Shown here: in pieces, positions 1 through 59,234 of the stretch
How positions within the stretch are numbered: position 1 is the stretch's first letter
How the letters are laid out: each line of letters opens with the position of its first letter
NCBI GenBank assembly: GCA_038045385.1
Contig: JBBSYE010000001.1
Span: forward strand, 42,165-106,164
Direction: 5' to 3'
Length of the DNA: 64,000 nt
Source of the DNA: Nanobdellota archaeon
Lineage (GTDB): Archaea; Nanobdellota; Nanobdellia; Pacearchaeales; GW2011-AR1
The notes under the pieces: generated by a model
What the model was told of the DNA's origin: nothing
The model's database searches: none
What the model saw: the letters and a program-made list of their open reading frames with translations, nothing else
Translations under genes and position numbers: made by a program

Positions 1-262
1 CCGCAACGCTTTCATTTCCAAATTCTATCTTTTCAATTTTTCTCTTAATATCCTTTCCAAGCAAATTTTGTGCAAGACTAGTTGAAGAAATCATTTCCTT
101 GCAAGAATCATTAAGAATCTTTATCCTATTCCTCAAAGAGGCACTAACTCCCTCAATAAGTTTCTTCTCATTCTCGCTACTATTCCTATGCTCAATAAAT
201 CCAATCAACTGCCTAGTCATCTCAAGCTCAACCGCCAGGTTTTTCTTTATCTCGTCTATCAT
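1..262 (-). CDS. Hypothetical coiled-coil protein, partial (N-terminal 87 aa visible, continues past window start)
   Basis: Reverse complement of 1..262 reads MIDEIKKNLAVELEMTRQLIGFIEHRNSSENEKKLIEGVSASLRNRIKILNDSCKEMISS... with no stop before the window edge. It is not in the ORF track because it is truncated. It lies immediately downstream of the pilus ATPase. Confidence 0.3.
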   Translation of the reverse strand, partial: MIDEIKKNLAVELEMTRQLIGFIEHRNSSENEKKLIEGVSASLRNRIKILNDSCKEMISSTSLAQNLLGKDIKRKIEKIEFGNESVA

Positions 263-414
263 ATCAAAGAATCAATCCTTTCACTTAACTCAAGAAGTTG
301 TTTTTTTGTCTTTTGAAAATTATCTACATTCTTATCATTAAAAGACTTTTCAAAATCAACAATCTTTTCTTTCATAGAAATTATAAGCTGAGCCAGAACC
401 ATAGCATCTCCTCT
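262..414 (-). CDS. Small ORF (50 aa) downstream of pilus ATPase, N-terminus MKRGDAMVLAQLII
   Basis: Manual translation of the reverse complement gives MKRGDAMVLAQLIISMKEKIVDFEKSFNDKNVDNFQKTKKQLLELSERIDSLI*. Its stop overlaps the ATG of the next ORF (ATGATAG). It is below the 60-aa track cutoff. Confidence 0.2.
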
Positions 415-453
415 CTTCATTTTAATAAATAATGAATGTTATTTATATACCTT

Positions 454-1977
454 TCAACCAACGGCGTATTGCTTCAAAACGGCGTCAGGGTTTCTATAGT
501 AGTCGTTAACAATTTTTCGCATTTCGTCAAACCCAAATACTTTTTTCTGAAAAAGAGAGTACAGCAATTTTGCTCTCTTCTTGAATTCCTCTTGAAGCTT
601 TTCATTTGGAATTCCATATCTAGTTGAAATTTTATCAAAGACTCTACTTTCTTTCTTGAAATAAAAGACATCTTGTGCAGGATTCCATGTAAAAGGAGTA
701 TTTATCAAAGCCGTCCCGTCCTTGTCAACATTAACAACTTCAACAATTTCTTTCAGCCTTCTTGTTTGTTTATTATTTACTATCGCATGAGTCATAATAA
801 CAACACAATCAAGAGAATTTACCAATGTAGGAGAGAGACTTATCGGAGGAGTTTCAAGTCTTCTTATAACCGTATCAAGAGAATCTGCGTGAATTGTACT
901 TATCGAAGCATGACCAGAAGCCATACCCTGAAATAAAACGAAAGCCTCCTTTCCTCTAACCTCTCCAACAATAACGTAATCTGGATTTTGACGAAAAGAG
1001 TTCTTAAGCAAATCAAATAAATCAACTTCTCCAACCTTACCAACTCCAATTGATGTTCTTGCTACAGCCGGAAGCCAATTCTCTCGAGGCAAATTTATCT
1101 CTCTTGTATCTTCAATTGAAATTACTCTTGCCTCTGGCGGAATGAAAAAAGCAAGTGCATTAAGCAGAGTAGTTTTTCCAGACGATGTACCACCGGCAAT
1201 CATAATGTTTGATTTATACTGCGTCAAAAGCCAAAAATAAGCAAGAATCTCCGGACTTAAACTACCAAGAGCAATAAGCTGAGTCGGCGTCCAAGGAACA
1301 TGAGTAAACTTTCTTATTGTAAACGTCGGTCCTCTAGACGTCACGTCCTTAGTATAAGTAGCATTTACTCTGTTCCCATCTGGCAAAGTCCCATCAAGCA
1401 AAGGTTGAGCATAAGAGATATACCTTCCACATCTCTGCGCAAGCTTCTCAACGAAGCTAGCGACTTCATTTACATCTTTGTAAACAATATTAGTCTTAAG
1501 ATTTCTATAGGCCCTATGAACTATGTAAATCGGCGTATTGATACCATTACACTCAATATCTTCAATAAAATAATCCTTTATTAGAGGATCAATTTCATTA
1601 AACCCAATAAAATTTCTATATAAATAATAAAACATTTTTTCATAAACATTCTCAGGGAAAGAAAGATCCATTTCCTGTATAACCAATCTTGCAGTCTTGT
1701 CAATATAATCAATCATACTTTCAAGAGTTCTTTCTTCTGCAACATTTATATTCATCAATTCAACCATGGCAGATTCAATCATCTTAAGCCACTGCTCCTC
1801 TTGAGGTTTAAGTAGGGGCTCTTCAACCTCATAAATCAACTCCCCCTCTTTTTCATTCCAATATATGTGAACTCCAGCGTAAGGCGCAATCAACGAATAT
1901 CTCACGTCAAGTTTAGTCTTATCTTCAATTCTCGGCAGAGCAGGAACTGAAGGATTTACATTAATATTTATTACCAT
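454..1977 (-). CDS. Type IV pilus / archaellum-type secretion ATPase (FlaI/PilB/TadA, VirB11 superfamily)
   Basis: 507 aa with Walker A GGTSSGKTTLLNALAFFIP and the conserved VirB11/FlaI core (DYVIVGEVRG..EA, hexamerisation region). Five pilin genes lie adjacent. Confidence 0.85.
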   Translation of the reverse strand: MVININVNPSVPALPRIEDKTKLDVRYSLIAPYAGVHIYWNEKEGELIYEVEEPLLKPQEEQWLKMIESAMVELMNINVAEERTLESMIDYIDKTARLVIQEMDLSFPENVYEKMFYYLYRNFIGFNEIDPLIKDYFIEDIECNGINTPIYIVHRAYRNLKTNIVYKDVNEVASFVEKLAQRCGRYISYAQPLLDGTLPDGNRVNATYTKDVTSRGPTFTIRKFTHVPWTPTQLIALGSLSPEILAYFWLLTQYKSNIMIAGGTSSGKTTLLNALAFFIPPEARVISIEDTREINLPRENWLPAVARTSIGVGKVGEVDLFDLLKNSFRQNPDYVIVGEVRGKEAFVLFQGMASGHASISTIHADSLDTVIRRLETPPISLSPTLVNSLDCVVIMTHAIVNNKQTRRLKEIVEVVNVDKDGTALINTPFTWNPAQDVFYFKKESRVFDKISTRYGIPNEKLQEEFKKRAKLLYSLFQKKVFGFDEMRKIVNDYYRNPDAVLKQYAVG

Positions 1978-2014
1978 CTTTTTCGTTAAAAGAAGAATTT
2001 ACTTAAATTTAAAC

Positions 2015-2548
2015 CTATCCACTAGAAATTTCCCTAAAGTCTATTCGATAGAAATCTCCTCCTTCAAGTAGCCCAATATTTTCAAATCTAAATCTATAAG
2101 GCACAGGAGAAGGTGCAAAAATTCTCTCGCTATCGGCCTCTTCAACAATATCAAATCTTCCAGAATAATCCAAAGAGAGCATTACATCAACTCTATCTCC
2201 GACTTTGCTTGTCAGTACATCAATATTTCCTATTTGAGTCTCAATTCCTTCTTCAGAATATACAATATCACTATCTTCAAGCAGATAAGATATTTTTTCA
2301 TTTTCAGAATCCACAGAAATAACTCCTTCTTTTATCCTAACATCAATTACTCTAGCATTTCCAGGATCTGTAGAGATTGCTTTTATTACAGAGTCTATAG
2401 AATTCATAACGGAGATTGTTTGCTCAATTACTGCCTTATCACGATATTCATTTATTCTCGGCGTAACAACCCCAAGTACAAGCCCAATAAGCGCAAGTCC
2501 AACTAGCGTATAAATAACCGTCTCAATCCAAACTTGTCCCCTCTTCAT
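2015..2548 (-). CDS. Archaeal type IV pilin-like protein (class III signal peptide, KRG|Q cleavage motif)
   Basis: N-terminus MKRGQVWIETVIYTLVGLALIGLVLGV: a basic residue, then G, then Q, then a hydrophobic helix. This is the classic PibD/FlaK substrate motif. Confidence 0.65.
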   Translation of the reverse strand: MKRGQVWIETVIYTLVGLALIGLVLGVVTPRINEYRDKAVIEQTISVMNSIDSVIKAISTDPGNARVIDVRIKEGVISVDSENEKISYLLEDSDIVYSEEGIETQIGNIDVLTSKVGDRVDVMLSLDYSGRFDIVEEADSERIFAPSPVPYRFRFENIGLLEGGDFYRIDFREISSG

Positions 2549-2549
2549 T

Positions 2550-3062
2550 TTAACTTAGCGTAATACCTTCCTCACACGGAACCAAATCTATAGAATCACT
2601 AACATCACAACTCTTTGAACCAATAATCGGCGCAACCTCAATCTTGCTGAAAGAACCAGTTGCAACATAAGTTCTCAATCCTCCTTTAGCAGGAATATTT
2701 AAGACATTATCTGAAGCTCCTAGCATCTTGATAACTCCCCCCAAATCACCATCTTCTGTAATTTTATAAGGAGTTGCACTTCCGGCATTATGAAGTATCA
2801 GTGTAAATCCCTCAATATCAATAGCTCCTCTCTGAACAGATATTCCCGTCAATTCTGTTGTTCCAGAAGCATCAAGACAAGCATAATCCGTTCCAACAAG
2901 CGTTAACTTATTTATTGTTTCAAAGCAATCACTTCCGCCGTCAAGGCTATTTCTAACAAATGGGATGACAAAAGCAGCAAGCACAGATATTAAAGCCACA
3001 GTTATCACGAGAAGCAAAACAGTAGCAACAACCGGCGAAACCCCTCTTTTCATTCTCATCAA
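2550..3062 (-). CDS. Archaeal type IV pilin (class III signal peptide)
   Basis: N-terminus MMRMKRGVSPVVATVLLLVITVALISVLAAFV. It is a paralog of the next gene. Confidence 0.7.
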   Translation of the reverse strand: MMRMKRGVSPVVATVLLLVITVALISVLAAFVIPFVRNSLDGGSDCFETINKLTLVGTDYACLDASGTTELTGISVQRGAIDIEGFTLILHNAGSATPYKITEDGDLGGVIKMLGASDNVLNIPAKGGLRTYVATGSFSKIEVAPIIGSKSCDVSDSIDLVPCEEGITLS

Positions 3063-3087
3063 AAAGGAATCTCTTTTTTATACTTTG

Positions 3088-3546
3088 CTATGAAATGAGT
3101 TGAACATTCTTTCCAGTGGAATCAGGGCAAGGATAAGTAACTCTATTTCCTCCAGAAGCTTCAGCAAGCAAAACAGGGACAACAAGCCCACTATCATAAT
3201 CTCCAATAACAAAATTATTAGATTCACCAGGGTTTAGTTTACTATCTCCATTGCTATCTTGAACACTCTCCGGAGTTATACTTCCATCGCGAGCTCCTCT
3301 AAATTCAAAACCAAAGATTGGAACATTCCCGCTATTACTTATCCCAAGTGTTCTAACTCCGTTATTGTCGTTATAAAGTTCAGCAGAAAAAACTATCTTA
3401 TCACATGACAACTCAACAGCCCTATCATTTTTCTGCGCCCCCTCCCTAAGAAAGCTTTGAGCCCAAAGAAAAATTATCGCAGCCAAAACGACAGTTATAG
3501 CGATAAGAAGCACAGTAGCAACAACCGGCGAAACCCCTCTTTTCAT
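3088..3546 (-). CDS. Archaeal type IV pilin (class III signal peptide)
   Basis: N-terminus MKRGVSPVVATVLLIAITVVLAAIIFLWAQ, nearly identical to the N-terminus of the 2550..3062 gene. Confidence 0.7.
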   Translation of the reverse strand: MKRGVSPVVATVLLIAITVVLAAIIFLWAQSFLREGAQKNDRAVELSCDKIVFSAELYNDNNGVRTLGISNSGNVPIFGFEFRGARDGSITPESVQDSNGDSKLNPGESNNFVIGDYDSGLVVPVLLAEASGGNRVTYPCPDSTGKNVQLIS

Positions 3547-3576
3547 ATTCCATTAGAGAAAATCAGCTTTTTATAT

Positions 3577-4095
3577 TTATAGTGAACAAGTAAGCTTCTG
3601 TTTTATAATTGCCCCCGAGCAGATTATATCCTTTTTCACATTTCCAGAAGCAAGTATAATCGGCTGAATCTCTACTTCTCTCTCCCCAGTTCCCAGAAGA
3701 GGATTCTCTTCAAAGTAGCTAACGCTCTGCCCAGGTTTTAGCCCGTCTTCATAATCTTGATTATAATTAATAAAATAAACCTTGCAAGAAGAATCGTCAC
3801 AAGGAAGCAAGTCTAGCTTCACAATTCTTCCCTCTTCCCCAATTTTAATCAAAACACCATCTACACTAAATAACCCCTTATTATCTAAAGTAATATTTAC
3901 TTTTCCCCCAGAACAGCTTAAACTCCTTATCACGAGCGCAACATCATCCGGACATCTCTCAGCATCAGGAGGCGCATAATTAGCAAGAAAATTATATACT
4001 CCTCCAGCAAGCGCAAGAGCTATAACAACAAGAAGCACATAACCGATAATAGGGCTAACTCCTTTTTTATCCAGTTGTAACAAACCTATCTTCAT
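3577..4095 (-). CDS. Pilin-like protein (class III-type signal peptide)
   Basis: N-terminus MKIGLLQLDKKGVSPIIGYVLLVVIALALAGGVY: KG then a hydrophobic segment. Confidence 0.5.
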   Translation of the reverse strand: MKIGLLQLDKKGVSPIIGYVLLVVIALALAGGVYNFLANYAPPDAERCPDDVALVIRSLSCSGGKVNITLDNKGLFSVDGVLIKIGEEGRIVKLDLLPCDDSSCKVYFINYNQDYEDGLKPGQSVSYFEENPLLGTGEREVEIQPIILASGNVKKDIICSGAIIKQKLTCSL

Positions 4096-4600
4096 TTTCC
4101 TCCCTTACGAGAACAAAATAAAAGTTCTGTCCATTTTCCAAATTAAAATTATAATCTATTCCGTCAATACTAACTCTTACCAAATCTCCAGTTTGGGAAA
4201 TAGCAGGCACCTCATTAACTTGTGTTCTTGCGACACCCTCGCAAGTTACTAAACCTCCCGTATCAATGCCAATGCAGCCAACTCCATCTTGAGTAAGTGT
4301 ATAGGCATGAAGTTCTTCAGAATTTCCATAAACAAAAACAACTCTATCTCTTTCAATATAAGGTGCATAATCTTCAATCAAACGTCTTATCAAATCGTCT
4401 GTACCTTGACCTTCGCCTTCATAGTCATTATAAGTACCATAATCACTAACTTGCCTTGCTTCAAAACCAATCTCCTTTCCCAAATCATAAAATCTTTCAT
4501 TCTCTCCGCTTTTCTGAACGTAATTTACAACAACAGTAAGCCCAAGAAGCGCGCCAACAATTACAATAGCAGCCATCAAGAAAAATTGTCCTCTTTCCAT
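4067..4600 (-). CDS. Pilin-like protein (class III signal peptide, RG|Q)
   Basis: N-terminus MERGQFFLMAAIVIVGALLGLTVVVNYV. It overlaps the upstream pilin gene by 29 nt. Confidence 0.55.
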   Translation of the reverse strand: MERGQFFLMAAIVIVGALLGLTVVVNYVQKSGENERFYDLGKEIGFEARQVSDYGTYNDYEGEGQGTDDLIRRLIEDYAPYIERDRVVFVYGNSEELHAYTLTQDGVGCIGIDTGGLVTCEGVARTQVNEVPAISQTGDLVRVSIDGIDYNFNLENGQNFYFVLVREENEDRFVTTG

Positions 4601-4635
4601 AAATTAAATATAACTTCGTTGTATTTAAAGATTAG

Positions 4636-4932
4636 TCAAAAGTAATTTTTTACAGCGAAGAGGCCTTGGCTTGACCAACCATCGAGAACTTTTCCCTCAA
4701 CTAGCCAACCATTAAAATTTCCAAATCTTTCTCTTATCTCTGCTTCAATTTCTTCTTTTGATTTCAAATGAGGAAATCCAGATTTCTCAATTAAGGTTCT
4801 AGAAAGGCGCCCCAATATATCATCATAATAAAAAGAAACACTTTGTGGCTCTTCAAATTCTCTTATTTTATCTTCTCTCACAATATAAATCGCATCTCTG
4901 CTAAAATTGTAAAATTCAACATCATCTATCAT
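4636..4932 (-). CDS. Hypothetical protein
   Basis: 98-aa ORF with no recognisable motif. Confidence 0.35.
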   Translation of the reverse strand: MIDDVEFYNFSRDAIYIVREDKIREFEEPQSVSFYYDDILGRLSRTLIEKSGFPHLKSKEEIEAEIRERFGNFNGWLVEGKVLDGWSSQGLFAVKNYF

Positions 4933-4983
4933 AAGAAAACCTCATTCGGGCACTTAATAAACATTATTATCAAAAAAATAAAA

Positions 4984-5241
4984 GTGTAGACGGGGAGTCT
5001 GCTCAAACAAACCGCCTGAGTTGATTCGCGCCTTTCTCGGCCATGCAACCCGGTAAGCACCGCGTTTCCTGTTTAGGGCTGCTCCGATCAAGGCCTGACC
5101 CGATTCACAAGAGCACGATCGAACCGGACATAGCGTCAACGTCCAGTACGAGACGCAAACGACAAGTTCTCACGCGCTCCTTTAAGCCTGCCTAAAGCCC
5201 GTTTGCAAATAGCGGAGGGCTACCCCGCCGGCTCGTCTACA
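4984..5241 (-). ncRNA. Signal recognition particle RNA (7S/SRP RNA)
   Basis: An approximately 260-nt GC-rich island in an AT-rich genome. The minus-strand transcript contains GGUCAGGCCUUGAUCGGAGCAGCC, matching the conserved helix-8 GGUCAGG...AGCAGCC core. The 5' end GUAGACG... pairs with the 3' end ...CGUCUAC as a terminal helix. Exact ends are uncertain. Confidence 0.7.
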
Positions 5242-5298
5242 TAAACTAAGACAGTAAAGTGTTTTTAAACCTTCTTCCAAACCCTATTCAGCCCATCT

Positions 5299-5601
5299 TC
5301 ATAACATTTCCTTCGCTTCTACTTTTTTATCATCATAAATAAAAATTTCCAAACAAAATTCGCTAGTCCCATCCCTTCTCGGAATAAAGCTCTCAATGTT
5401 TGCACTAACAATACACTTGCCAACAGGAGTATCGGATATAATATAATTCGTAGTGCGAGGCCTTACTAATCCCAAGTAATTGAAAAAATCTCCTCTTTCC
5501 ATACTATCAACTTTCCCCAAACTTTCTATGCTCTTAAGCACATCTAAAAATTCATCTGGCTCAATATCTCTCTTAATAGTCTCAGCCAAAGACAAAACCA
5601 T
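5299..5601 (-). CDS. Hypothetical protein
   Basis: 100-aa ORF. Confidence 0.35.
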   Translation of the reverse strand: MVLSLAETIKRDIEPDEFLDVLKSIESLGKVDSMERGDFFNYLGLVRPRTTNYIISDTPVGKCIVSANIESFIPRRDGTSEFCLEIFIYDDKKVEAKEML

Positions 5602-5606
5602 CTTTT

Positions 5607-5828
5607 CTAAATCTCGCCATATCTAACCGATTTCTTTCTCATCTTATACGGCACAGTTTCAGAAACAACTTCTTCCTCAACTTGCTCTTTAATCGCCTTA
5701 TAGTCATCATCCTTCTTTTCCACACGAGGAGGAATTATTAGAAATAAAAATACAAAAAATACTAGAAAAAATATTAAAATTCCAGTCACAATCAACATCA
5801 AAGTCAAAGCATCCATATATCCAAGCAA
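5607..5828 (-). CDS. Small membrane protein
   Basis: 73 aa with one strong TM segment (LTLMLIVTGILIFFLVFFVFLFLII). Confidence 0.35.
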   Translation of the reverse strand: MLGYMDALTLMLIVTGILIFFLVFFVFLFLIIPPRVEKKDDDYKAIKEQVEEEVVSETVPYKMRKKSVRYGEI

Positions 5829-5855
5829 AAAATCAGGTATTTAATGATTATTGTG

Positions 5856-7517
5856 CTACATTCTCTCAATAACATCAATGCCCAAAAGACCAAGCGCATT
5901 CTTTAAGGTCTGCGCAAAAGCTTCAACAAGTGTAAGCCTAAAGTTCTCTTCGGCACTCCCGATGACTTTACAAGAATGATAAAATTCATTAAATGTCTGC
6001 GATAAATCATAAGCATAATGTGCAATTAAATTTGGCGAGTAATCAAGTGAAGATTGTCGAACAACTTCTGGAAATCGAGCAATTTCAGAAACAACTTTTT
6101 TTTCAGAGTCATTAACCCCAGTAATAATCATTTTTTTTCCCTTATTTTTCTTTAAAATATTCTTTGCCCGAGCGTAGCTATAAAGCAAGTAAGGCCCGGT
6201 ATCTCCCTCAAAAGAAACAAATCTATCAATATCAAAAACAACATCTGTGCTTCTATTATTTTTCAAATCACCATAAAAGATAGCGGCTCTAGCAATTGCC
6301 AGCGCGCGTCGCTCAAGTTCTTTATCGCTAATCTTTTCTCTCTTCAAAATTTCCTTTTTGGCAAGGTTGGCAGTTTCCTCTAAAATATCTTTCATAAAAA
6401 CAGTCTTGCCCTTTCTTGTAGCAAACTTTTTTCCATCTCCATCCAAATACAACCCGTGATCAATATGAACGCACTTAGCTGCCCAATTAAATCCAAGTAG
6501 TTCAAGCACTTTGAAAAACTGCCTAAAATGTAGCTTCTGTTCAGCGCCCACTTCGTAAAGAAGATAATCTGCTCCAAATCTATTGTGTCTATCAATAGCG
6601 GCAGTTATATCTCTTGTAGCATAAAGAGTTCCTCCATCGGCTTTCTTAATCAAGCAAACTCCAAGATTATATCTCTCAAGGTTCACAACCCAAGCACCAT
6701 CACTTAGCTCAAGTAAACTTTTCTTCTTCAATAGCCCAATAGTTGAGTCCATTTTAGAATTATATTCCGACTCTCCAGAAAATACATCAAATTTCACATT
6801 CAGAAGTTTGTAAATTTTTTTGAATTCATCCAAACTTAGTTTGCGAAATTCAGCCCATATTTTCAAAGCCTCTTTATCTCCTTGCTCCATTTTTCTAAAC
6901 CAATTCCTTCCCAATTCATCAAATCTTTCATCAGAAGAGGCTTTTACATAAACTTCCAGAAGATGTTTTAAAGGCTCTTTTTTTAACAATTTAGAATTTC
7001 CAAATTCTTTATATCCCGCTATAATTTTTCCAAATGGAGTCCCCCAGTCTCCCAAATAATTCAACTTTTTTACTTTATATCCGCTAAAACTTAGCGTCTT
7101 TGCAATAGAGTTTCCAATTATAGTAGATCTAAGATGTCCTATTCCGAATGGTTTTGCAATATTCGGAGAAGACATATCAATAACAACTACTTTTTCAGCT
7201 CCAATTTTCGAAGAGCCGTATTTATCTCTTTTCTTCTTGACTTCCAAAATTGTTCCACTCGCTAGCATTTTTCTACTAACAAAGAAATTAACGTAAGGAC
7301 CAGAGGCTTGAACTTTCTCAATCTCCTCAGTTTTGATTATCTTGCTCGCTAGTTCTTTAGCAATTTCTACAGGATTCTTCTTCATAAATTTAGCAAGAGC
7401 AAAGCATGGAAATGCATAATCTCCCAAAGAATCATCTTTCGGCTTTTCAATAAGTTCCTCAATATCAAGTTCATCTTTCACAACCTTCTTAAGAAGTTTA
7501 ACAACAATTTCCCTCAT
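5856..7517 (-). CDS. argS: Arginine--tRNA ligase
   Basis: 553 aa, class I synthetase. The HIGH-region equivalent is PNIAKPFGIGHLRSTIIGNSI, and there is a C-terminal DALR-type anticodon-binding region. Confidence 0.9.
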   Translation of the reverse strand: MREIVVKLLKKVVKDELDIEELIEKPKDDSLGDYAFPCFALAKFMKKNPVEIAKELASKIIKTEEIEKVQASGPYVNFFVSRKMLASGTILEVKKKRDKYGSSKIGAEKVVVIDMSSPNIAKPFGIGHLRSTIIGNSIAKTLSFSGYKVKKLNYLGDWGTPFGKIIAGYKEFGNSKLLKKEPLKHLLEVYVKASSDERFDELGRNWFRKMEQGDKEALKIWAEFRKLSLDEFKKIYKLLNVKFDVFSGESEYNSKMDSTIGLLKKKSLLELSDGAWVVNLERYNLGVCLIKKADGGTLYATRDITAAIDRHNRFGADYLLYEVGAEQKLHFRQFFKVLELLGFNWAAKCVHIDHGLYLDGDGKKFATRKGKTVFMKDILEETANLAKKEILKREKISDKELERRALAIARAAIFYGDLKNNRSTDVVFDIDRFVSFEGDTGPYLLYSYARAKNILKKNKGKKMIITGVNDSEKKVVSEIARFPEVVRQSSLDYSPNLIAHYAYDLSQTFNEFYHSCKVIGSAEENFRLTLVEAFAQTLKNALGLLGIDVIERM

Positions 7518-7547
7518 TTCATCAAGTCTTAAACTTTCTTAATAAAT

Positions 7548-8000
7548 CTATCCAAGACAACCGCCATATTTCAACAGAGCCCTATATTTTAAACCCAAAG
7601 AGGCCTCAGGGCCCCTAATATCAACAATCAAATCTCCATTTGTCCTCGCCTGTTGCAATCCAGAACACCATCCTTGTTCTCCAATCTTATCAAGGTAGCT
7701 TTCTGGAATAGAAACATAAACATCCGCTCTTTCGCTAGCCCCAGAAGAAACAGAATTTCCAGAGATAGTATAATCTTCCTCCCCAACTCTCAAGCCTATA
7801 ATCCCACTTTCAGGCATATCCTGTACTACTGCAAACTTGCCCAATTCTGAAGGTAAATTTTCCTGTGTTATCTCTCTAGGCGTCCAAGTAGAATACTGAG
7901 GTTTAGCAAAAAAACTATCATAAAAAAAATAGCCTGCAATTAAAAGAACAACAAGAAAAAAACCAATAAGAACAAATCTTACACTTCTTTTTTTAATCAT
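7548..8000 (-). CDS. Membrane-anchored hypothetical protein
   Basis: N-terminal TM segment followed by a soluble domain. Confidence 0.4.
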   Translation of the reverse strand: MIKKRSVRFVLIGFFLVVLLIAGYFFYDSFFAKPQYSTWTPREITQENLPSELGKFAVVQDMPESGIIGLRVGEEDYTISGNSVSSGASERADVYVSIPESYLDKIGEQGWCSGLQQARTNGDLIVDIRGPEASLGLKYRALLKYGGCLG

Positions 8001-8045
8001 AATCTAGCATAATAAGAAGAGTATATAAATTTTCTAAACTTAAAT

Positions 8046-8888
8046 CTAGTATCCCCAGTTTGCAAGAATTTCAGTTATATCATTAAAGTTTACCATTTTA
8101 TCTCCATCTACATCAGCTCTGCCTGTTTCAGCTCTACCTATTAGGTATCTTACAATTTCGACATCAATCACATCAGCAACGCCGTCTCCATTGACATCGC
8201 CCTTCTTATTAGGGTCAAGCAATAAGAATTTGATTGGATTAGCCTTATCAGCAACAATCTCTCCTGTTTTTTGCACAGACATCTCAAGGCCGTATACCCC
8301 TGCGTTATAATTGTTTGTAGATAGCATAAGAGTTATGATGCTAACAGTTCCATCCTGCTCACTTACAGTAGAAAGAACGCTCAATTCAGGACAACTTGTA
8401 GATGAGTCTCCATGCATAAAAGAGCACGTTTGTACAAGCGGGTTACCTGAGCCTGTACCAATTCCACTAAGTTCAATTCTAATCGCTTCATCATTTTCAA
8501 TAGCAACATCACTCTGTAACTCTAGATAAATTGGCAAATCAGTTCCAAGCCAAGTTTTATCATATCCCACATCAATAAATGCAGTAATATTAGAAGATAC
8601 ATTTAATCCAAGATTTACTGGAACCACTCTATTAATAATTCCGTTATCGCTATTTCTACTTTTTGAGCTTCCAGAACTGCTTGAACTTTGAGGAGTATTC
8701 ACAACTTCATCTTTATCATCAATTACGACAAAAGAGTTTTCAGTAACAGAACCTTCAAGAGCAGCATTACTATCTATCCCGCTATTAAAATCTTCAGAAG
8801 CAAATCCAAAAATACTCAACATAGTAACTAAAGCTAAAGTCAAAGCGACTCCCGCAAAGAACATCTTATTCATAAATAAACCCTCCAA
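8046..8888 (-). CDS. Secreted protein with C-terminal dockerin-like Ca-binding repeats
   Basis: N-terminal signal/TM segment. The C-terminus has DVNGDGVADVIDVEIVRY...DVDGDKMVNFNDITEILANW, i.e. two DxNxDGxV dockerin-type repeats. Confidence 0.55.
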   Translation of the reverse strand: MEGLFMNKMFFAGVALTLALVTMLSIFGFASEDFNSGIDSNAALEGSVTENSFVVIDDKDEVVNTPQSSSSSGSSKSRNSDNGIINRVVPVNLGLNVSSNITAFIDVGYDKTWLGTDLPIYLELQSDVAIENDEAIRIELSGIGTGSGNPLVQTCSFMHGDSSTSCPELSVLSTVSEQDGTVSIITLMLSTNNYNAGVYGLEMSVQKTGEIVADKANPIKFLLLDPNKKGDVNGDGVADVIDVEIVRYLIGRAETGRADVDGDKMVNFNDITEILANWGY

Positions 8889-8948
8889 AAGAGGTATTTA
8901 AACTTTTCGGCATCAAATTTAAAACCCTCCAAACTCAAATATAATCAT

Positions 8949-9021
8949 GCCTCTATAGCTCAGCGGTTAGAGCGTTGCACTCGTAATGCAAAGGTCGGGA
9001 GTTCAATTCTCCCTAGAGGCT
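8949..9021 (+). tRNA. tRNA-Thr (anticodon CGU)
   Basis: GCCTCTATAGCTCAGCGGTTAGAGCGTTGCACTCGTAATGCAAAGGTCGGGAGTTCAATTCTCCCTAGAGGCT. The cloverleaf folds by hand: 7-bp acceptor stem, CTCGTAA anticodon loop, GTTCAAT T-loop. Confidence 0.85.
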
Positions 9022-9098
9022 TATAACCAACAAACACTGCGGTGTTTGTTGGAAGTCCTTCTAGAAAAGCTTAAAAACCTGATAAAAGCCAGAATTAT

Positions 9099-9371
9099 AT
9101 GATAACTGAAAGACAAGTACTAGAACAAATTTTAGGAGCTAGAAAATATGTTAGAGAAAACGCAGAGGCTCTTAGACAGCAGTATGGATCACATTATCTT
9201 GCAATAAGTGGGAATGCAGTTGTAGATCACGACGCTGATGAAGGAGAACTTATAAAAAGAACATTAGGTTCTAATAGAGGAGTTACTTATGGCACAATAG
9301 ATCATTTAACTGGCCTTCCTGAACTGGTAACTGCCGCAGAAGAGAGATTAAAAGAATTAGCAGTTGCTTAA
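9099..9371 (+). CDS. Hypothetical protein
   Basis: 90-aa ORF. Confidence 0.35.
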   Translation: MITERQVLEQILGARKYVRENAEALRQQYGSHYLAISGNAVVDHDADEGELIKRTLGSNRGVTYGTIDHLTGLPELVTAAEERLKELAVA

Positions 9372-9517
9372 AAATAGCAAAGTAAATAAACTCCTAGAAC
9401 ATTAGATAACTAAGTTACGAGATTAGGCGGTTCAAAGCCACTAGCGAGGTTCCCGAAAAGTTCAGAGCCAAATAGAGGCTTAAGATACTTTTAAATAAGC
9501 AAAAAAGTCATATTTTT

Positions 9518-9814
9518 ATGGCGAAAGATTGCATTGAAGTTATAGTAACTCCTGAGTTCGCATCAAAGGAAAAACCAGGCAAACTCGTCTTCCGAGGAAA
9601 ACCTCCGGCAATAGATATAAGACAAGAAATGCATCATGGTAGATCTTATGTAGTAAAGGCTCCTGCGTATGCCTATGGTCGTGAAATTGAAATAGTAGGT
9701 TCTATGGTCAAAGAAGCATTATGTTTAACTGACGCCCACCAAAATCATAGAATTAAATATTGCCTCTTCCAAGACGGAAAGAAGAAAATTGATATTTTTC
9801 CCCTCAAGACTTAA
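9518..9814 (+). CDS. Hypothetical protein
   Basis: 98-aa ORF. Confidence 0.35.
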   Translation: MAKDCIEVIVTPEFASKEKPGKLVFRGKPPAIDIRQEMHHGRSYVVKAPAYAYGREIEIVGSMVKEALCLTDAHQNHRIKYCLFQDGKKKIDIFPLKT

Positions 9815-9977
9815 CAATGGTGATAATAACCTTAAAATAAGAAGAACGTTATAGCAGAGAAGTCGGAGATAAAATTAAAGCCCTTATCCATAAGGAAAGA
9901 TTTCCAAGGGCAAGAACATCAAAAAACTATCAGAGAAAACAGGCCTAACCCAGAGTCATTCAGACAAAATTCTTACT

Positions 9978-10205
9978 TTGCTTGAAAATGGATTGATATG
10001 GGGCACAACAAGCGTTCATCCTGCACCAGAAAGTCTTGATAGAGTCATTACTGCTTTAGCCATATTAGGATTATCTTCAGAAGATGAAATTATTAACGAT
10101 TATAAAGAAAGAATCGGGCATTATGGTTTTACAATTCATAGATCCCAATCGGAGTTCGAACGTTATCAATCTATTTCTTTAGAGGCTCAAACAATCCAGT
10201 TTTAA
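9978..10205 (+). CDS. Hypothetical protein
   Basis: 75-aa ORF. Confidence 0.25.
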   Translation: MLENGLIWGTTSVHPAPESLDRVITALAILGLSSEDEIINDYKERIGHYGFTIHRSQSEFERYQSISLEAQTIQF

Positions 10206-10737
10206 GACCATAAAAAGTATGTATTCCTCTAGTTAGTAAAAGAGCAAAAATATAGGATAAAGCGAAAGCACTAGTCCTATCAAACCCTTTGGTGATTAGA
10301 AAATAATGTCCTCCTGTCGCAAAAACAAAATAAAATACAGATAAGACGATCCTTTCAGCTTGAATTCTAAAGATATCTTTTTTCAATGAGCTTGAAATCT
10401 TTCCTTGACTGATTTGTTTTTTATTCAAAAATCCATGAAGTATAATAAAAATTCCAAAATCAATCAAAGCATCAATCCCAAATGAAATTAATGCAATCGC
10501 TCTAGGAGAATCAGCAATCATCTTTGTCAAATAAACAGGGTATAAAGCAAGAAAAATAGAAGCCAAACTTGCAATTATTATATTTACATTTATATTGACA
10601 ATTCTTTTTTTCTTATAAATTTCAAACAAGTTCATATGACGATTAGAACAACAATTTTTAAATAGCCTACTATTCAAAATGTTATATGGTAAAAGGAGAC
10701 GAGATGTTGAAGATAGCAGTAATGGCTGGAGCTTCAA
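10171..10737 (-). CDS. Integral membrane protein
   Basis: 188 aa with multiple hydrophobic helices. Confidence 0.45.
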   Translation of the reverse strand: MKLQPLLLSSTSRLLLPYNILNSRLFKNCCSNRHMNLFEIYKKKRIVNINVNIIIASLASIFLALYPVYLTKMIADSPRAIALISFGIDALIDFGIFIILHGFLNKKQISQGKISSSLKKDIFRIQAERIVLSVFYFVFATGGHYFLITKGFDRTSAFALSYIFALLLTRGIHTFYGLKTGLFEPLKK

Positions 10738-10830
10738 GAGCGCTCAAATTTAAAGAAGAAAATTGGAAAGCTACTTCTGAAGAAGTCCTTCGTCACGTTA
10801 GTTCAAGCATGCCTGAAATTATTAATAATA

Positions 10831-11106
10831 TTGATTCTGACTAATATGGGAGAATATGCCTTCAAAGAACTAAGGGAGAAGGTGAGCCAAAGATTAGGCC
10901 AAGAAGAAGCTAGAAATTTATTAAGAAAATGGACGACAAGAGCAAATACAAACTATAGGTTAAAATCCAAATTAGAAAAACCTAAAGAAGCCCCACTTAG
11001 ACTAATCGCCAGAACTGATTATGTAAAAAGAGATGTATTAGTATCATATAGCCTCTGGCTTGCAGATACACGAGTTCATGCTTTAGATTCTTTAGTTTCT
11101 GAATAA
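10831..11106 (+). CDS. Hypothetical protein
   Basis: 91-aa basic protein. Confidence 0.35.
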   Translation: MILTNMGEYAFKELREKVSQRLGQEEARNLLRKWTTRANTNYRLKSKLEKPKEAPLRLIARTDYVKRDVLVSYSLWLADTRVHALDSLVSE

Positions 11107-11144
11107 GCATAATCTTTTATACCTTTATTTCGCTAATTTAATGT

Positions 11145-11275
11145 GCGGGGGTAGCAAAGCGGTTAAATGCGCAAGACTTAAGACGTCCCGCGCTCGTTAG
11201 AGCGCGTGAAGCATTAGATTTCGGAAGAAATCTTGTGGCTTAGTGCCTTCGGAGGTTCGAATCCTCCCTCCCGCA
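11145..11275 (+). tRNA. tRNA-Leu (anticodon UAA) containing a ~47-nt intron in the anticodon loop
   Basis: GCGGGGG acceptor stem, 3-bp D-stem, and anticodon stem CAAGA...TCTTG. The stem is interrupted at 11184..11230 after the loop CTTAAGA. A long variable arm (GGCTTAGTGCC) indicates a class II tRNA. T-arm GGAGGTTCGAATCCTCC, discriminator A. Confidence 0.8.
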
Positions 11276-11289
11276 TTTTTGTTTATCGA

Positions 11290-11392
11290 TGCGAGTCTTC
11301 GAGCCTGTGAGAAGGGTCGAGCGAGAATAAACAAAAAATCTTACTCCGCAGCGAATCTCCGAGCATGTGAGGAGGGTTGAGCAAGAGAGTAA
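11290..11392. repeat. Two imperfect direct repeats (~42 nt each) downstream of tRNA-Leu
   Basis: GCGAGTCTTCGAGCCTGTGAGAAGGGTCGAGCGAGAATAAAC and GCGAATCTCCGAGCATGTGAGGAGGGTTGAGCAAGAGAGTAAAG. Confidence 0.5.
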
Positions 11393-11473
11393 AGAGAATG
11401 GTCAAACAAGAATGAAACGAGAAGTAAGTCAAGCAAGACAATAATTTTTAAATATTATAATCTATAAATTTTA

Positions 11474-12115
11474 ATGTCAAAAATATCAGAATTAAAAGCA
11501 AAAATAAACTCTATTCCAGAAGAATATAAGCAAATAATAGACTTGCGAATATCAGAATTCAGCTCTTTCAATCAAAAAACGAACGAAGACTGGTTTTCAG
11601 AACTCTGCTTTTGTCTGTTAACGGCAAACTCAAAAGCACAAACTGCAATCAACATTCAAAAAACTCTAGGATACGATGGCTTCACCAAACTCTCTCAAGA
11701 AAATTTAGCGAGAACAATAAGAGAACATAAACACAGATTTCATAATAACAAAGCCAAATACATAATCCAAGCAAGACAAAATAAAAATATCAAAGAAATA
11801 ATACAATCTATAGTAAAAAAAGAAAACGAATTTAAAGCAAGAGAATGGCTTGTTCAAAATATAAATGGCCTTGGCTATAAGGAAGCCTCTCATTTTCTAA
11901 GAAACACGGGCCATAAAAGTTTAGCAATTTTAGACAGGCACATTTTGAATATTTTAGCAGATAACAACATTATAGAAAAGCCAAAATCTCTAAACAAAAA
12001 GATTTATCTTGATAATGAAAAAATATTTCAGAATTTAGCTTCAAGTCTTGAGACAACGCCAGCGAAGCTAGACTTGCAATTATGGTATCTTCAGACAGGC
12101 AGAGTGCTTAAATAG
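11474..12115 (+). CDS. ogg: N-glycosylase/DNA lyase (8-oxoguanine DNA glycosylase, archaeal Ogg-type, HhH-GPD superfamily)
   Basis: 213 aa. Helix-hairpin-helix segment NGLGYKEASHFLRNTGHKSLAILDRHILNIL, typical of Ogg2-type enzymes. Confidence 0.6.
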   Translation: MSKISELKAKINSIPEEYKQIIDLRISEFSSFNQKTNEDWFSELCFCLLTANSKAQTAINIQKTLGYDGFTKLSQENLARTIREHKHRFHNNKAKYIIQARQNKNIKEIIQSIVKKENEFKAREWLVQNINGLGYKEASHFLRNTGHKSLAILDRHILNILADNNIIEKPKSLNKKIYLDNEKIFQNLASSLETTPAKLDLQLWYLQTGRVLK

Positions 12116-17238: not shown

Positions 17239-17796
17239 TTACCATTTACTCTTTCTTTCTAAGGCCCTAGCAACAACCGCAAGAATTCTCTTCTTTTTTG
17301 TTTCAATCCCCTTAGCTCTAACAATCCATCTATAATACATCTTTTTGTAAGATTTTCCGAATTTCTCAAAATTTTCCCTAGCCATTTTATTTTTTTTCAA
17401 AGCAAGCTCTAGCTCCTTAGGCATTTCCAAGTTTTCAAGCCCGTGATCAATAGTCTCTTTTCCTAAACCCTCTAAATATCTCTTCTTCCCATTCTCAACC
17501 ATTCTATCCTCATCAAGTAGCTTCTTCCCATATTTCATAGTATTATTACTCCATCTACTCTTATCTGTTCTTTTTGCGAACCTTATAACATATTTTTCAT
17601 CATCAATTCTCTTAACCGTAGTATCTATCCATCCAAAACAAATTGCCTCATGCATAAATTCCAAGTGTGTAGGAGAATTTTTACCAGTATGCTTCTTATA
17701 TCTAATAACCGCAATCTTACTTTCCTTCAGATGATTCTTTTCAAGCCATAACCTCCAAGACTTAATATCTTTGAAATAAATCTCCTCCGCGGTCAT
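17239..17796 (-). CDS. YdeI/OmpD-associated (DUF1801-like) family protein
   Basis: WLEKNHLKESKIAVIRYKK...HEAICFGWIDTTVKRIDDEKYVIRFAKRTDKSRWS matches the YdeI N-terminal pattern. Confidence 0.5.
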   Translation of the reverse strand: MTAEEIYFKDIKSWRLWLEKNHLKESKIAVIRYKKHTGKNSPTHLEFMHEAICFGWIDTTVKRIDDEKYVIRFAKRTDKSRWSNNTMKYGKKLLDEDRMVENGKKRYLEGLGKETIDHGLENLEMPKELELALKKNKMARENFEKFGKSYKKMYYRWIVRAKGIETKKKRILAVVARALERKSKW

Positions 17797-18494
17797 CTTA
17801 TTTTTTTGATTTCCTTCTTAATCCTCATGGCTTCTTTTTTTTCTTTTTCAGCTTTCTTCAGCTCAACTTTTTTCAACTCAGTCCTTAACTCTTTAAGTTT
17901 CTTTTCCATCTCTTTTATCTCAAATTCTTCCTCTTTAATATAACCTATCCGCTCCTTCTCCTTAATTTTTTCGGCATAAGCAAAAAACATCTTTAGTGGT
18001 ATCTTAATGATATTCAATACTATTGAAATAACTACAATTATGAATAACAATGCAACTACAACACCCAAGCCGACTCCAAGATTAGAATGTACAAATAGAA
18101 TAATTGCATAGGCAAAAAGATGTAAAGTCAATACGGAGCTCAAATGTTTTGCGAATTTTTCAGGCAGTATATGATTAAAATTAAACTTTAGTATTGCCCA
18201 TCCAATAAACAGCACAAAAATAGCCGCAATGCTCTTACCAGAATAAGTTATAAAATTATCAAAACCTCCAATTCCAATTCCATAAATATATCTAAATAAT
18301 CCAAGAGATACAAAAAACAGAACTAAAGAGTTAGATAAATAAGCCCCCCAATTTTCTCTTTCGTGCTTATATTTCTCGAAATAGCTTAATATAATAATGG
18401 TAGCAAAAAACAAAGGAACTATTTCCCATAATACCTCTGGAGTAAAGCTTAGTTTAATAAAATAAATAATCAAGGAAGTTATTTCGTTCACCAT
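17793..18494 (-). CDS. Membrane protein with K/E-rich coiled-coil tail
   Basis: 233 aa with about five TM helices, then EKERIGYIKEEEFEIKEMEKKLKELRTELKK. Confidence 0.4.
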   Translation of the reverse strand: MVNEITSLIIYFIKLSFTPEVLWEIVPLFFATIIILSYFEKYKHERENWGAYLSNSLVLFFVSLGLFRYIYGIGIGGFDNFITYSGKSIAAIFVLFIGWAILKFNFNHILPEKFAKHLSSVLTLHLFAYAIILFVHSNLGVGLGVVVALLFIIVVISIVLNIIKIPLKMFFAYAEKIKEKERIGYIKEEEFEIKEMEKKLKELRTELKKVELKKAEKEKKEAMRIKKEIKKIR

Positions 18495-33784: not shown

Positions 33785-36037
33785 CTAACCAATAACCTCA
33801 CTGCATCCAAAGGAAAGAGAACAAGTAGTTATGTTAACTATTCCGTTCAAAGGCTGAACAATCCAATATCCTTTTGTTGAAACAGGATTTTGTGGATTCC
33901 AAATAATTCCTTCTGAAAAAGTTATTGTTCTGTCCACGCGAGAAAATCTAACTCCTTCACTATAATTTCCATCAACAGAATATCCTGCACTATCAAGAGG
34001 ACTAAATCTCCAGACTTTTCTCCCACCAGAAGCCATTCCAGTTAGAACATAATCATTACCCCAATGAGCCAGTTCTTTCCAAGATTTTCCAGCACCATAA
34101 GCATCTCCTGTTCTATCATTATCAAGCAAACTCTGTCTATCAGAAAAACCAGCAATCAAATTAAACTCAGCAAGAGTATTAGACAGCATATCGCGATCTT
34201 CATCAATTCTTAGCAAATCCGCTTCAGGAGTTATCATAGCCCCCCCATTACAAATTGAAGAAGGTGCCCAAAATATAAAATCATCCGCACCAGCTAAAGC
34301 AGAATGTAAAACACTCTCCTGCCAATAGTCAGTATTAGCCATAGCCACTAGAGGACCACCCAAATCGCACTCCTCATTTGTACCTCCTTCCCAGCTTTTT
34401 CTTGCAATCCACGGAATTACCTTGTCTTCGTCATTGAGGACAGAAGCACGCATTTGATTAACACTATATCTGAAAGAGTTAAAACTAGTAGAAGGATAAT
34501 TTATTCCATCAGGCCCATTACCAGCTAATGTAATTTGCCCCAACCAACCATAAAGATTAGGCGATTGTCTATTTCCTATATGAATATCATCTTGGGGATT
34601 AAGACCAGGCGCACTAATAGTAGCAATACCATTTCCATTTAAGTCTTCAAGTGGAACATCTCCCGAGCCAGCAACAATAGTATCCCAATTATTCGCACTA
34701 CCATAGCTTGCATATTTTATATTCGGAAATAAGTTTTGCGAAGTATTTAAAAAGGAAATATTAAAATAATCGCGCCTATGTATTTCAGTTACCATATTCC
34801 ATATTCTATAGGCATAGCCCACTCTATTATCCACATTATCAACAAGATATTGCCCATTTTGCATCTCCACATTTACAAGATATTCTGGAAAACCCATGCT
34901 TGCCCTAATAGCCTCATATCCGGAGTCTGCACCAATTGCCCTCCAGCGTGCTTCTTGATTAGAGAGATTTATTTGACTATCTATTTGCCAGTTACTAAAC
35001 CCTGATTCTATATCTGTTAATAGTATATCAAGTTCGCCCTCTTCACCACTTCCTTGATTTTTATACAGACGCATTAACTCCTCCACAAATAAAGCAGTTT
35101 CATCAGCCCCATTATCCCACCAGATAAGATTAGCTGTGCTTTCTATTCCTGAAACACCATCATCTTGAATTTCCTCTTCACTAAAACTAATTCTATCATC
35201 AATGTTTCTTGTAAGTAAACTAGACTGGTCATCCCTAGTAAGAATTATCATGGCTTTTTTACCATTCGGTTGTCCCATCAAGAAATTTCTTGCAATATCA
35301 ACTTGGCTTAAATCACCTCCAGCTGGGCCATTTCCTTGGTAATGATAAATATGCGAAATAAATGGCTCATTCACAGGACCTATTGTCCATGCTAATGCGA
35401 AAAGATTATTTCTCGCAGGATCCTGTTCATTAGCATCATCCTCGCTAGAACATCCAGGGTCAAAAGGCCAATCTATCAAACCATCTCCATCATTCCCACT
35501 ATTTGCAGAAGAAGAGTCAGAATTATCAGAACAAGCAGCTTGATTTATTATCGGAGCAGTTTCATCAACATCACCATTTGAGCAAACAACAGGACTACCA
35601 ATTAGGGAACAAGCAGAAACTCCAATAATTCCAGCGACGTCAACATTAAATGATTGAGCAACATCAACATCAGAAATCTGATAAACTTTAGTTTCAAATG
35701 TTTCAGGAAAAAAAGTTGTTGAGAATGTCTCAATTCCATTAGGAGTATTAAATACCAACCTAACTCCATCAAGAGAACCTTCAGGCAATCCTCTACGAAC
35801 TTGAACAGAAGTTAGTCCCCTTGTAACGTCGGTAATGCAAGAAATAATCTGAAGATTTGCATTTATACAACTAGTTGCTCTATCAATTCCCACCGAACTT
35901 CCAGAGCCATCATCAGAAGAATCACCAAGAGAGAAAATCACATGCTTCACTCCAACCCATAAAATCCCAGCAGATATAACAACAAGCAATATAATAAGCA
36001 CAGAAGTAACTATGCCTGACAAACCCCCTTTTAACAT
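33785..36037 (-). CDS. Large secreted/surface protein (750 aa) with class III (prepilin-like) signal peptide; paralog A
   Basis: N-terminus MLKGGLSGIVTSVLIILLVVISAGILWV. Long blocks are conserved with the 36081..38177 gene (RLVFNTPNGI, GVSACSLIGSPVVCS, DIESGFSNW, GSGDVPL...ISAPGL...GNRQSPNLYGWLGQIT...GPDGINYP...FNSFRYSVNQMRA, WQESVLHSALAGADDFIFWAP). Confidence 0.7.
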   Translation of the reverse strand: MLKGGLSGIVTSVLIILLVVISAGILWVGVKHVIFSLGDSSDDGSGSSVGIDRATSCINANLQIISCITDVTRGLTSVQVRRGLPEGSLDGVRLVFNTPNGIETFSTTFFPETFETKVYQISDVDVAQSFNVDVAGIIGVSACSLIGSPVVCSNGDVDETAPIINQAACSDNSDSSSANSGNDGDGLIDWPFDPGCSSEDDANEQDPARNNLFALAWTIGPVNEPFISHIYHYQGNGPAGGDLSQVDIARNFLMGQPNGKKAMIILTRDDQSSLLTRNIDDRISFSEEEIQDDGVSGIESTANLIWWDNGADETALFVEELMRLYKNQGSGEEGELDILLTDIESGFSNWQIDSQINLSNQEARWRAIGADSGYEAIRASMGFPEYLVNVEMQNGQYLVDNVDNRVGYAYRIWNMVTEIHRRDYFNISFLNTSQNLFPNIKYASYGSANNWDTIVAGSGDVPLEDLNGNGIATISAPGLNPQDDIHIGNRQSPNLYGWLGQITLAGNGPDGINYPSTSFNSFRYSVNQMRASVLNDEDKVIPWIARKSWEGGTNEECDLGGPLVAMANTDYWQESVLHSALAGADDFIFWAPSSICNGGAMITPEADLLRIDEDRDMLSNTLAEFNLIAGFSDRQSLLDNDRTGDAYGAGKSWKELAHWGNDYVLTGMASGGRKVWRFSPLDSAGYSVDGNYSEGVRFSRVDRTITFSEGIIWNPQNPVSTKGYWIVQPLNGIVNITTCSLSFGCSEVIG

Positions 36038-59124: not shown

Positions 59125-59234
59125 GTTATTCCGAGCAAACGGCCATTGTCATTGTCAAGATTGTTCCTGCCGTTCGCATTCGACCTGTTCTCGAGCCTGT
59201 TGACAATCCACGCCCCAGAGCATAGCCCATTCAC
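59125..59234 (-). pseudogene. Fragment (~35 codons) of a paralog of gene 59964..60755
   Basis: 59131..59216 is about 80% identical to 60128..60213 at nucleotide level (DxDNGRLLGI vs DYDDGRLLGI). The fragment starts 7 nt after the RT stop. Confidence 0.5.

Follow-up and report, generated by a model that had tools for sequence, protein, structure and literature searches.

The first 4,600 nucleotides (nt) of the 64,000-nt stretch of contig JBBSYE010000001.1 analysed here (hereafter, the window) carry a block of minus-strand genes that very probably belongs to the complete operon for assembly of a type IV pilus (type IV filament) in a DPANN archaeon, cut in two by the start of the window. The host lineage is Nanoarchaeota in the broad sense, Woesearchaeota/Pacearchaeota-like. 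An initial annotation had described a compact type IV pilus-like locus encoding an ATPase of the FlaI/PilB family and five pilins carrying class III signals, and all of these open reading frames (ORFs) are indeed present on the minus strand at the coordinates listed below. It had also supposed that a platform protein might lie beyond the window start. Positions 1-11977 of the window proved to be identical base for base (11,977/11,977) to a 145,448-bp groundwater metagenome contig from the 0.1-µm fraction, deposited in the European Nucleotide Archive (ERZ1292624), and two T2SSF genes are found on that contig exactly where the supposition placed them. The description as compact did not hold, since two platform genes and two more pilin-like genes follow. 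Both the compact and the platform-less appearance of the locus arise because the window start cuts the operon. The genes, with names assigned in this analysis (pilA-pilG, s53, TadC1 and TadC2), are given here in their minus-strand order; an arrow marks the cleavage position in the class III-type motif, and L001 coordinates refer to the locus on the metagenome contig.

4067..4600, minus strand: pilE, 177 amino acids (aa), first gene of the operon, of a divergent "minor pilin-like" class, MERG↓QFFLMAAIVIV.
3577..4095, minus strand: pilD, 172 aa, of a PilA/UpsA-like class, ..DKKG↓VSPIIGYVLLVVIAL.
3088..3546, minus strand: pilC, 152 aa, MKRG↓VSPVVATVLL.
2550..3062, minus strand: pilB, paralogue of pilC, 167-170 aa, starting at TTG 3062 or at ATG 3059 or 3053, MKRG↓VSPVVATVLL.
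2015..2548, minus strand: pilA, 177 aa, always directly upstream of the ATPase gene, MKRG↓QVWIETVIYTL.
454..1977, minus strand: assembly ATPase of the archaeal GspE/FlaI type, 507 aa, T2SSE domain (E = 8.7e-31, Pfam).
259..420, minus strand: s53, conserved soluble protein of 53 aa, whose stop codon overlaps the TadC1 start (ATGA).
1..262, minus strand: TadC1, first half of the membrane platform, with its ATG at 262-260 and 426 aa in all; the first 87 codons lie here and the rest beyond position 1.
Beyond the window start, same strand, overlapping TadC1 by 1 nt: TadC2, second half of the platform, 291 aa, T2SSF domain (E = 2.6e-15).
L001 13868-14596, beyond the window start, strand opposite to the locus: FmrO-like ribosomal RNA (rRNA) methyltransferase (E = 1.7e-18), between the platform genes and pilF/pilG.
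Beyond the window start, past the methyltransferase gene, same strand as the operon: pilF, 243 aa, TKG↓VSHIE.
Beyond the window start, after pilF, same strand as the operon: pilG, 138 aa, NRG↓WLKIVE.

On the contig, the pilus locus spans approximately 8.4 kb and comprises 11 same-strand genes. Neighbouring genes overlap by up to 29 nt or are separated by up to 37 nt, in keeping with a single operon. To this stretch we applied a motif rule that demands [KR]G followed by 20 strongly hydrophobic residues; of 266 window ORFs of at least 40 aa, only seven satisfied it, and five of these seven are consecutive genes of the pilus locus, which shows that the pilin cluster is real and not a product of chance. 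Collectively, the locus combines what is expected of an archaeal type IV pilus, namely an ATPase with intact nucleotide-binding motifs, an adjoining T2SSF platform and subunits with class III signals. A TATA-like box (TTTAAATA; 4622..4629, minus strand), read from the sequence, ends 22 nt ahead of the pilE ATG and represents a possible operon promoter that would give rise to a leaderless transcript; the genome is AT-rich, and comparable boxes precede several internal genes. A scan for bacterial promoters and terminators returned 19 promoter-like sites (15.3±3.2 expected) and zero terminators, and it is hardly informative for an archaeon because it is aimed at sigma-70-type promoters. Just upstream of the operon lies a GC-rich structured RNA (5007-5236, minus strand) that matches the signal recognition particle RNA model RF01854 with 60.3 bits, the gathering score being 60.

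The view that the window holds no platform gene was correct for the membrane part of the protein, but the first 87 codons of TadC1 do lie within it, and the 87 residues they encode are residues 1-87 of the contig ORF L001 11716-12996. Likewise, the ORF after the ATPase that had been taken for a separate coiled-coil protein exists, but it is actually the cytoplasmic N-terminus of TadC1. The T2SSF domain of TadC1 occupies residues 257-382 (E = 2.7e-14, Pfam). When aligned to the 555 positions of the NCBI ArlJ/FlaJ model, TadC1 covers positions 45-248 and TadC2 positions 265-541; judged by these alignments, the two proteins together are one FlaJ/TadC-type platform split over two genes. The AlphaFold2 model of TadC1 (predicted local distance difference test score [pLDDT] of 82.7) contains a helical bundle, and its closest structural counterparts in the PDB are cytoplasmic domains from EpsF, PilC and OutF (with a Foldseek probability of 1.00 and target TM-scores of 0.68-0.74), while the N-terminal ~115 residues are modelled as a helical hairpin, a beta hairpin and a further helix. 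TadC1 is already present in GenBank as a "type II secretion system F family protein" (MEK6898513.1). The family PF20990 (DUF2207_C), reported on some TadC1 homologues, was discarded, as these matches are below the cut-off and run over transmembrane segments. The methyltransferase gene behind the platform is found in closer relatives only, and in the distant loci pilF follows TadC2 directly; the gene thus appears to be an insertion into an older operon. Its opposite strand and its absence from the distant loci also led us to reject it as a pilin N-methylase or other component of the system.

The ATPase is, by its sequence, a member of the archaeal GspE/FlaI family. Walker A (GGTSSGKT), Asp box, Walker B and His box are all readable, and the nearest solved relative is GspE of Archaeoglobus fulgidus (2OAP; E = 6e-114, 384 bits, residues 21-502), followed by Sulfolobus FlaI (8e-80, 272 bits), CpaF (5e-45, 157 bits) and VirB11 (1e-17). 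In terms of scores, archaeal pilus- and archaellum-type ATPases thus rank far above VirB11/TrbB, and the affinity to non-pilus secretion ATPases that would have spoken against the initial annotation was not seen. A C-terminal match to the PilB3-like family is weak (PF23989, E = 0.021). Homologues of the ATPase and of the platform are named "flagellar protein FlaI" and "flagellar protein FlaJ" by the Joint Genome Institute (JGI), which implies that the locus could encode an archaellum; the top NCBIfam matches are indeed FlaI and ArlJ models, the ATPase and platform folds are homologous, and the class III-signal N-terminal domain TIGR02537 is common to archaellins. However, the ATPase reaches only 373.9 bits on the FlaI equivalog model, under its cut-off of 550, so that the "FlaI" label must be regarded as generic, and no ArlJ model gives more than 94.5 bits, where the cut-offs are 400-570. 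The ATPase is, moreover, nearer to the non-archaellar A. fulgidus GspE than to FlaI, the platform is split in two genes, and no match to FlaH/ArlH, FlaF/G, FlaC/D/E or FlaX was found in the locus or its flanks by Pfam, NCBIfam or precomputed annotation. Finally, the pilins find their best matches among pilins (UpsA model; Pilin_N). We therefore consider it extremely unlikely that the locus encodes an archaellum.

The pilin-like genes fall into a recognizable and a divergent group. The TIGR02537 cut-off of 20 bits is passed by three of them, pilC (48 bits), pilB (28.4 bits) and pilD (30.1 bits), and the Pfam Pilin_N cut-off by two locus genes (Pilin_N E values: pilC, 1.9e-8; pilB, 3.8e-6; pilD, 1.1e-4). 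The three proteins are paralogous along almost the entire sequence (hhalign probability 97-98.6%): pilB matches the pilC family with a probability of 98.6%, and pilD matches the pilC and pilB families with 98.4% and 97.1%, respectively, over ~130 residues. The near-identity of two pilin N-termini, remarked on from the outset, is even exact in that pilB and pilC share MKRGVSPVVATVLL, and the two proteins are 37% identical over 105 residues. The pilC protein also matches the UpsA model (E = 1.1e-9), and a profile of 14 pilC orthologues matched the solved archaeal filament subunit PDB 8FK7 over residues 3-112 (E = 1.8e-11). Since pilC was furthermore found in all 14 loci that cover its position, its sequence makes it the best candidate for the major filament subunit.

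The relationship among the pilA, pilE, pilF and pilG proteins is weak (hhalign probability 44-68%), and three of the four have an invariant Glu at +5 or +6. In pilA, Gln+1, Trp+3 and Glu+5 are invariant in alignments of 14 and of 46 sequences. None of its 430 homologues has a Pfam domain, some are labelled "pseudopilin PulG" by JGI, and a Pfam scan of 46 family members returned noise only. The AlphaFold2 model of pilA (pLDDT 92.9) consists of an N-terminal helix of 57 residues (residues 2-58) and a beta domain, and the predicted architecture is that of a pilin. The pilE protein passes the test for a class III-like motif and a hydrophobic stretch, its motif [KR]xG↓QF(F/Y) is kept in eight orthologues, and its sole Pfam match, restricted to the N-terminus, is weak (DUF7261, E = 0.0043). 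The gene is optional in relatives, being missing from several related loci. The orthologues of pilF carry the motif G↓xxH(I/V)E and those of pilG the motif G↓W(L/I)(K/R)IxE. A cleavage-type motif followed by a hydrophobic segment is in fact kept in the orthologues of all seven pilin-like families, including the five proteins of the window whose class III sites the initial annotation had relied on. These motifs resemble the experimentally determined cleavage sites KGQV, KGIS and RALS of processed archaeal proteins (PMC4371748, Table 1).

The initial annotation had also singled out a small ORF with the N-terminus MKRG after the ATPase. This ORF is real and conserved: s53 is called as a 53-aa gene in four genomes, and in 14 of 15 related loci a homologue is encoded between ATPase and platform. 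The protein has neither a hydrophobic segment nor a Pfam family, and its homologues start with MERE, MNKA or MEKE. The MKRG start is therefore a coincidence of this genome, and s53, which also lacks a hydrophobic segment, does not belong to the pilins. Among the related loci, s53 is missing only from that of a Candidatus Nanoarchaeia archaeon (L019), and the first platform gene of this locus (L019 11548-12456, 302 aa) also lacks the ~115-residue helical N-terminus. Their joint absence hints that s53 and the N-terminus of TadC1 work together.

The operon is widely conserved. Over 7,600 homologues of the ATPase were retrieved at E ≤ 1e-20; the top 120 are 70-99% identical, indicating strong purifying selection; the named ones among these 120 come from Nanoarchaeota, Pacearchaeota or Nanoarchaeia. 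Twelve loci stem from species-representative genomes, labelled Woesearchaeota, Pacearchaeota or Nanoarchaeia, with one labelled "uncultured archaeon" only. The order (pilE pilD) pilC pilB pilA, ATPase, s53, TadC1, TadC2, pilF, pilG is shared by 15 distinct loci. In related loci, a gene with a PKD domain often stands next after pilG. Large PKD-domain proteins are encoded downstream at L001 17863-21524 and at equivalent places in L006, L007, L011, L012, L015, L016 and L018; the N-terminus of the second L001 PKD gene, the only complete one that can be read, looks Sec-type. These proteins may be S-layer-like or adhesin partners, as noted for euryarchaeal pilus loci.

Among the described systems, the locus recalls two archaeal types. 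With the euryarchaeal clade-2 pili (A. fulgidus GspE; Haloferax volcanii PilB3/PilC3 and PilB4; Makarova, Koonin & Albers 2016, PMC4858521) it shares the full-length alignment to A. fulgidus GspE, the weak PilB3-like C-terminus of the ATPase, and the combination of PilA-like Pilin_N pilins with further divergent pilin-like genes. Two tadC-like genes per locus have been reported for archaeal clades 1 and 2, and clade 2 takes in some nanoarchaea (PMC4858521). However, the platforms of system 2 are single genes in a recent preprint (10.64898/2026.04.22.720090), neither s53 nor the N-terminal extension of TadC1 is described for clade 2, and pilA, pilE, pilF and pilG match no curated family. With the Epd pilus of Methanococcus maripaludis (system 1), the locus shares two platform genes beside one ATPase and many pilin genes. 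The Epd pilus requires the platform paralogues EpdJ and EpdK, EpdL being its ATPase and EppA its peptidase (PMC4371748), and split platforms occur in system 1, DPANN included, and in DPANN variants of subsystem 4A (preprint 10.64898/2026.04.22.720090). In addition, Gln+1 in pilA and pilE and Glu+5 in pilA recall the QXSXEXXXL/DUF361 motif, QXSXEXXXL being the motif of EppA substrates (PMC2910488). The remaining pilins carry V or W at +1. In contrast to the Epd pilus, neither this locus nor the 15 related loci encode an EppA-type peptidase, and the Epd-type class III signal family of Pfam is matched by none of the five pilin-like proteins of the window or the 46 pilA-family members. Moreover, the pilins of the locus have globular domains of 100-200 residues, whereas the main Epd pilin has none (preprint 10.64898/2026.04.22.720090). 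At the level of sequence, then, the ATPase scores and the weak PilB3-like match point towards clade 2, and the split platform and the Gln+1/Glu+5 pilin towards system 1.

Likeness to the bacterial Tad/Flp pilus (CpaF/TadA, TadB, TadC) is confined to the platform, which there too is split into two proteins with a single T2SSF domain each, and to the kinship of the ATPase with CpaF (E = 5e-45). The ATPase is nevertheless far nearer to archaeal enzymes (157 bits for CpaF versus 384 for A. fulgidus GspE) and scores 143 bits on the TadA-family model against a cut-off of 373. The pilins of the locus are 138-243 aa long, not short Flp-type peptides, the host is an archaeon, and no secretin (RcpA), TadZ or other Tad accessory protein was matched among the locus genes scanned. 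Family membership tests thus place the locus outside the archaellum, the Sulfolobus bindosome (Bas) and the bacterial Tad pilus alike.

The processing of the pilins would require a prepilin peptidase, and, in line with the initial annotation, none was found in the window: Peptidase_A24 was not detected by Pfam scans of its polytopic ORFs and of ORFs of at least ~190 aa in the uncovered part, nor in the precomputed Pfam annotation of called genes. A 233-aa membrane protein (17793-18494) was tried as a candidate and rejected; its sequence contains GGFD, but it has no matching first Asp and no A24 match. A scan of all related loci for GxGD-type motifs gave only chance matches in the platform halves. 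In archaea, the prepilin peptidases PibD and FlaK are usually encoded apart from the pilus loci, so the absence of a peptidase gene near this locus is unremarkable. The locus might alternatively be an incomplete or decaying remnant that is non-functional for want of a signal peptidase, as the 83 kb of contig searched yielded no A24 peptidase and two nanoarchaeal genomes have been found to lack a detectable one (Makarova et al., PMC4858521). We regard this as very unlikely, however. The nine genes within and next to the window are all intact, with their catalytic motifs present, the ATPase is conserved to the degree described above, and the gene order is kept in 15 loci, whereas the peptidase search covered a minor part of the genome.

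Several observations nevertheless weigh against a complete pilus operon and the roles assigned to its parts. The search for a class III signal peptidase gave none in the window, in contig positions 47951-130584 (83 kb) or in the related 11-21-kb loci, and the processing of pilins in this organism is an assumption. The pilA, pilE, pilF and pilG proteins match no curated pilin family in Pfam and NCBIfam scans; a fold search with the pilA model against the PDB gave only non-significant Ig-like matches, and the search with the pilA profile against PDB sequences gave only non-significant matches to the N-terminus of Geobacter pilin. The roles of s53 and of the individual pilins are drawn by analogy, the link between s53 and the N-terminal extension comes from a single locus (L019), and for this organism the argument as a whole is made from genes.

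If the system works as the accepted model for type IV filaments of archaea and bacteria has it, the prepilins would be inserted into the membrane and cut after the conserved Gly by a class III signal peptidase whose gene lies elsewhere in the genome. A hexameric ATPase would dock on the TadC1/TadC2 heterodimer, and ATP hydrolysis would power the extraction of pilins from the membrane and the polymerisation of pilC-type subunits. By analogy with known systems, the filament is most likely formed by pilC, possibly together with pilB and pilD, and pilA, pilE, pilF and pilG are most likely low-abundance priming or tip subunits. The s53 protein and the ~115-residue helical N-terminus of TadC1 probably act as a cytoplasmic adaptor between ATPase and platform, again by analogy. 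It is tempting to go further and to propose a lineage-wide operon in which three PilA-like filament subunits and a four-protein priming/tip complex (pilA, pilE, pilF and pilG) divide the labour in bacterial style and are driven via a lineage-specific cytoplasmic module (s53 and the TadC1 N-terminus); this proposal remains tentative and is, on balance, rather improbable.

The machinery need not build a long adhesive pilus. Two adjoining genes of the window encode large paralogues that are 46% identical, match no Pfam family and carry class III-like N-termini (MLKRG↓ISGVVIF..).

33785-36037, minus strand: 750-aa protein, N-terminus MLKGG↓LSGIVTSVLIILLVV.
36081-38177, minus strand: 698-aa protein, N-terminus MLKRG↓ISGVVIFTIFILVL.

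They could be surface proteins processed by the peptidase, or else adhesins or enzymes associated with the pilus. One relative encodes, within its pilin block, a protein of 584 aa that starts in the manner of pilB (KRG↓ITPIIATVLL; L012 6597-8351) and in which a pilin is fused to a large extra domain. The machinery might accordingly form a short pseudopilus or bindosome-like structure that displays or anchors large surface proteins with class III signals, for example the paralogues of 698 and 750 aa. This would be in line with the presence of such proteins in the same window and in the relative's locus, with weak matches to the bindosome ATPase and platform models, and with the proposal of a 2026 preprint (10.64898/2026.04.22.720090) that type IV filament machineries are widely functionalised by binding proteins with class III signals. 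We nevertheless hold such a structure to be unlikely. The bindosome models score far below their cut-offs (BasE, 218.6 bits versus 1000; BasF, 37.8 bits versus 1300), and the paralogues lie 30 kb off. They show no significant similarity to the pilins of the locus (pilB) past the N-terminus, and a pilin domain in them was rejected for the same reason. The three PilA-like pilins, one of which matches a solved filament subunit, argue instead for a true filament.

The likely role of such a filament is adhesion to surfaces or host cells. A competence-type pilus that serves mainly in DNA or nutrient uptake is a plausible alternative, albeit a fairly unlikely one. The Epd-type pilus of M. maripaludis, with its split platform (epdJ, epdK, epdL), is essential for natural transformation (PMC10133366), and DPANN archaea are described as having reduced genomes and depending on scavenging (PMC11291902, PMC9938205). 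The conserved locus, however, contains no DNA-binding or DNA-transport gene, and no retraction ATPase was seen. Sequence does not discriminate between adhesion and uptake, which are mutually compatible functions.

Several features elsewhere on the contig deserve mention. An RT-16 RNA motif (RF03019, 70.3 bits; 59217-59354, minus strand) lies beside a reverse transcriptase gene (RVT_1; 57704-58543, plus strand), in a block with SLFN/AlbA_2, UvrD-like helicase, ResIII and N6/N4 methyltransferase genes; the block has the appearance of a DPANN defence island that includes a reverse transcriptase-associated RNA. Approximately 1.6-7.6 kb past the window end, on the same contig (L010 1479-7494), a family-B DNA polymerase (925 aa) is encoded near Cas1 (408 aa), a pair that resembles a casposon. 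A 131-nt transfer RNA match (11145-11275, plus strand; Rfam, 47.6 bits) was unreported by ARAGORN and probably contains an intron. Finally, a secreted protein of 280 aa (8046-8888, minus strand) has a dockerin-like repeat at its C-terminus (Dockerin_1; at 22.0 bits, the match narrowly misses the cut-off of 22.9).

The present case chiefly corrects an artefact of the window edge. The operon is an ordinary and widely conserved one, its platform gene is already annotated in GenBank, split platforms have been described in archaeal Epd-like and DPANN systems, and the occurrence of pili in DPANN archaea in general is covered by surveys (PMC4858521; preprint 10.64898/2026.04.22.720090). The small additions made here are seven defined pilin-like genes, a conserved 53-aa partner gene and an N-terminal extension of the platform. 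According to one study of groundwater, DPANN genomes lack the components of type IV pili (preprint 10.1101/2020.05.14.094862); in contrast, we find a complete archaeal-type operon with a high degree of conservation in Woesearchaeota, Pacearchaeota and Nanoarchaeia. DPANN archaea presumably live in attachment to other cells, a contact for which pili suggest themselves as candidates. If the tentative proposal of a tip complex and an s53 module is true, the operon would encode the principal organelle for host contact or uptake in these ultra-small archaea.

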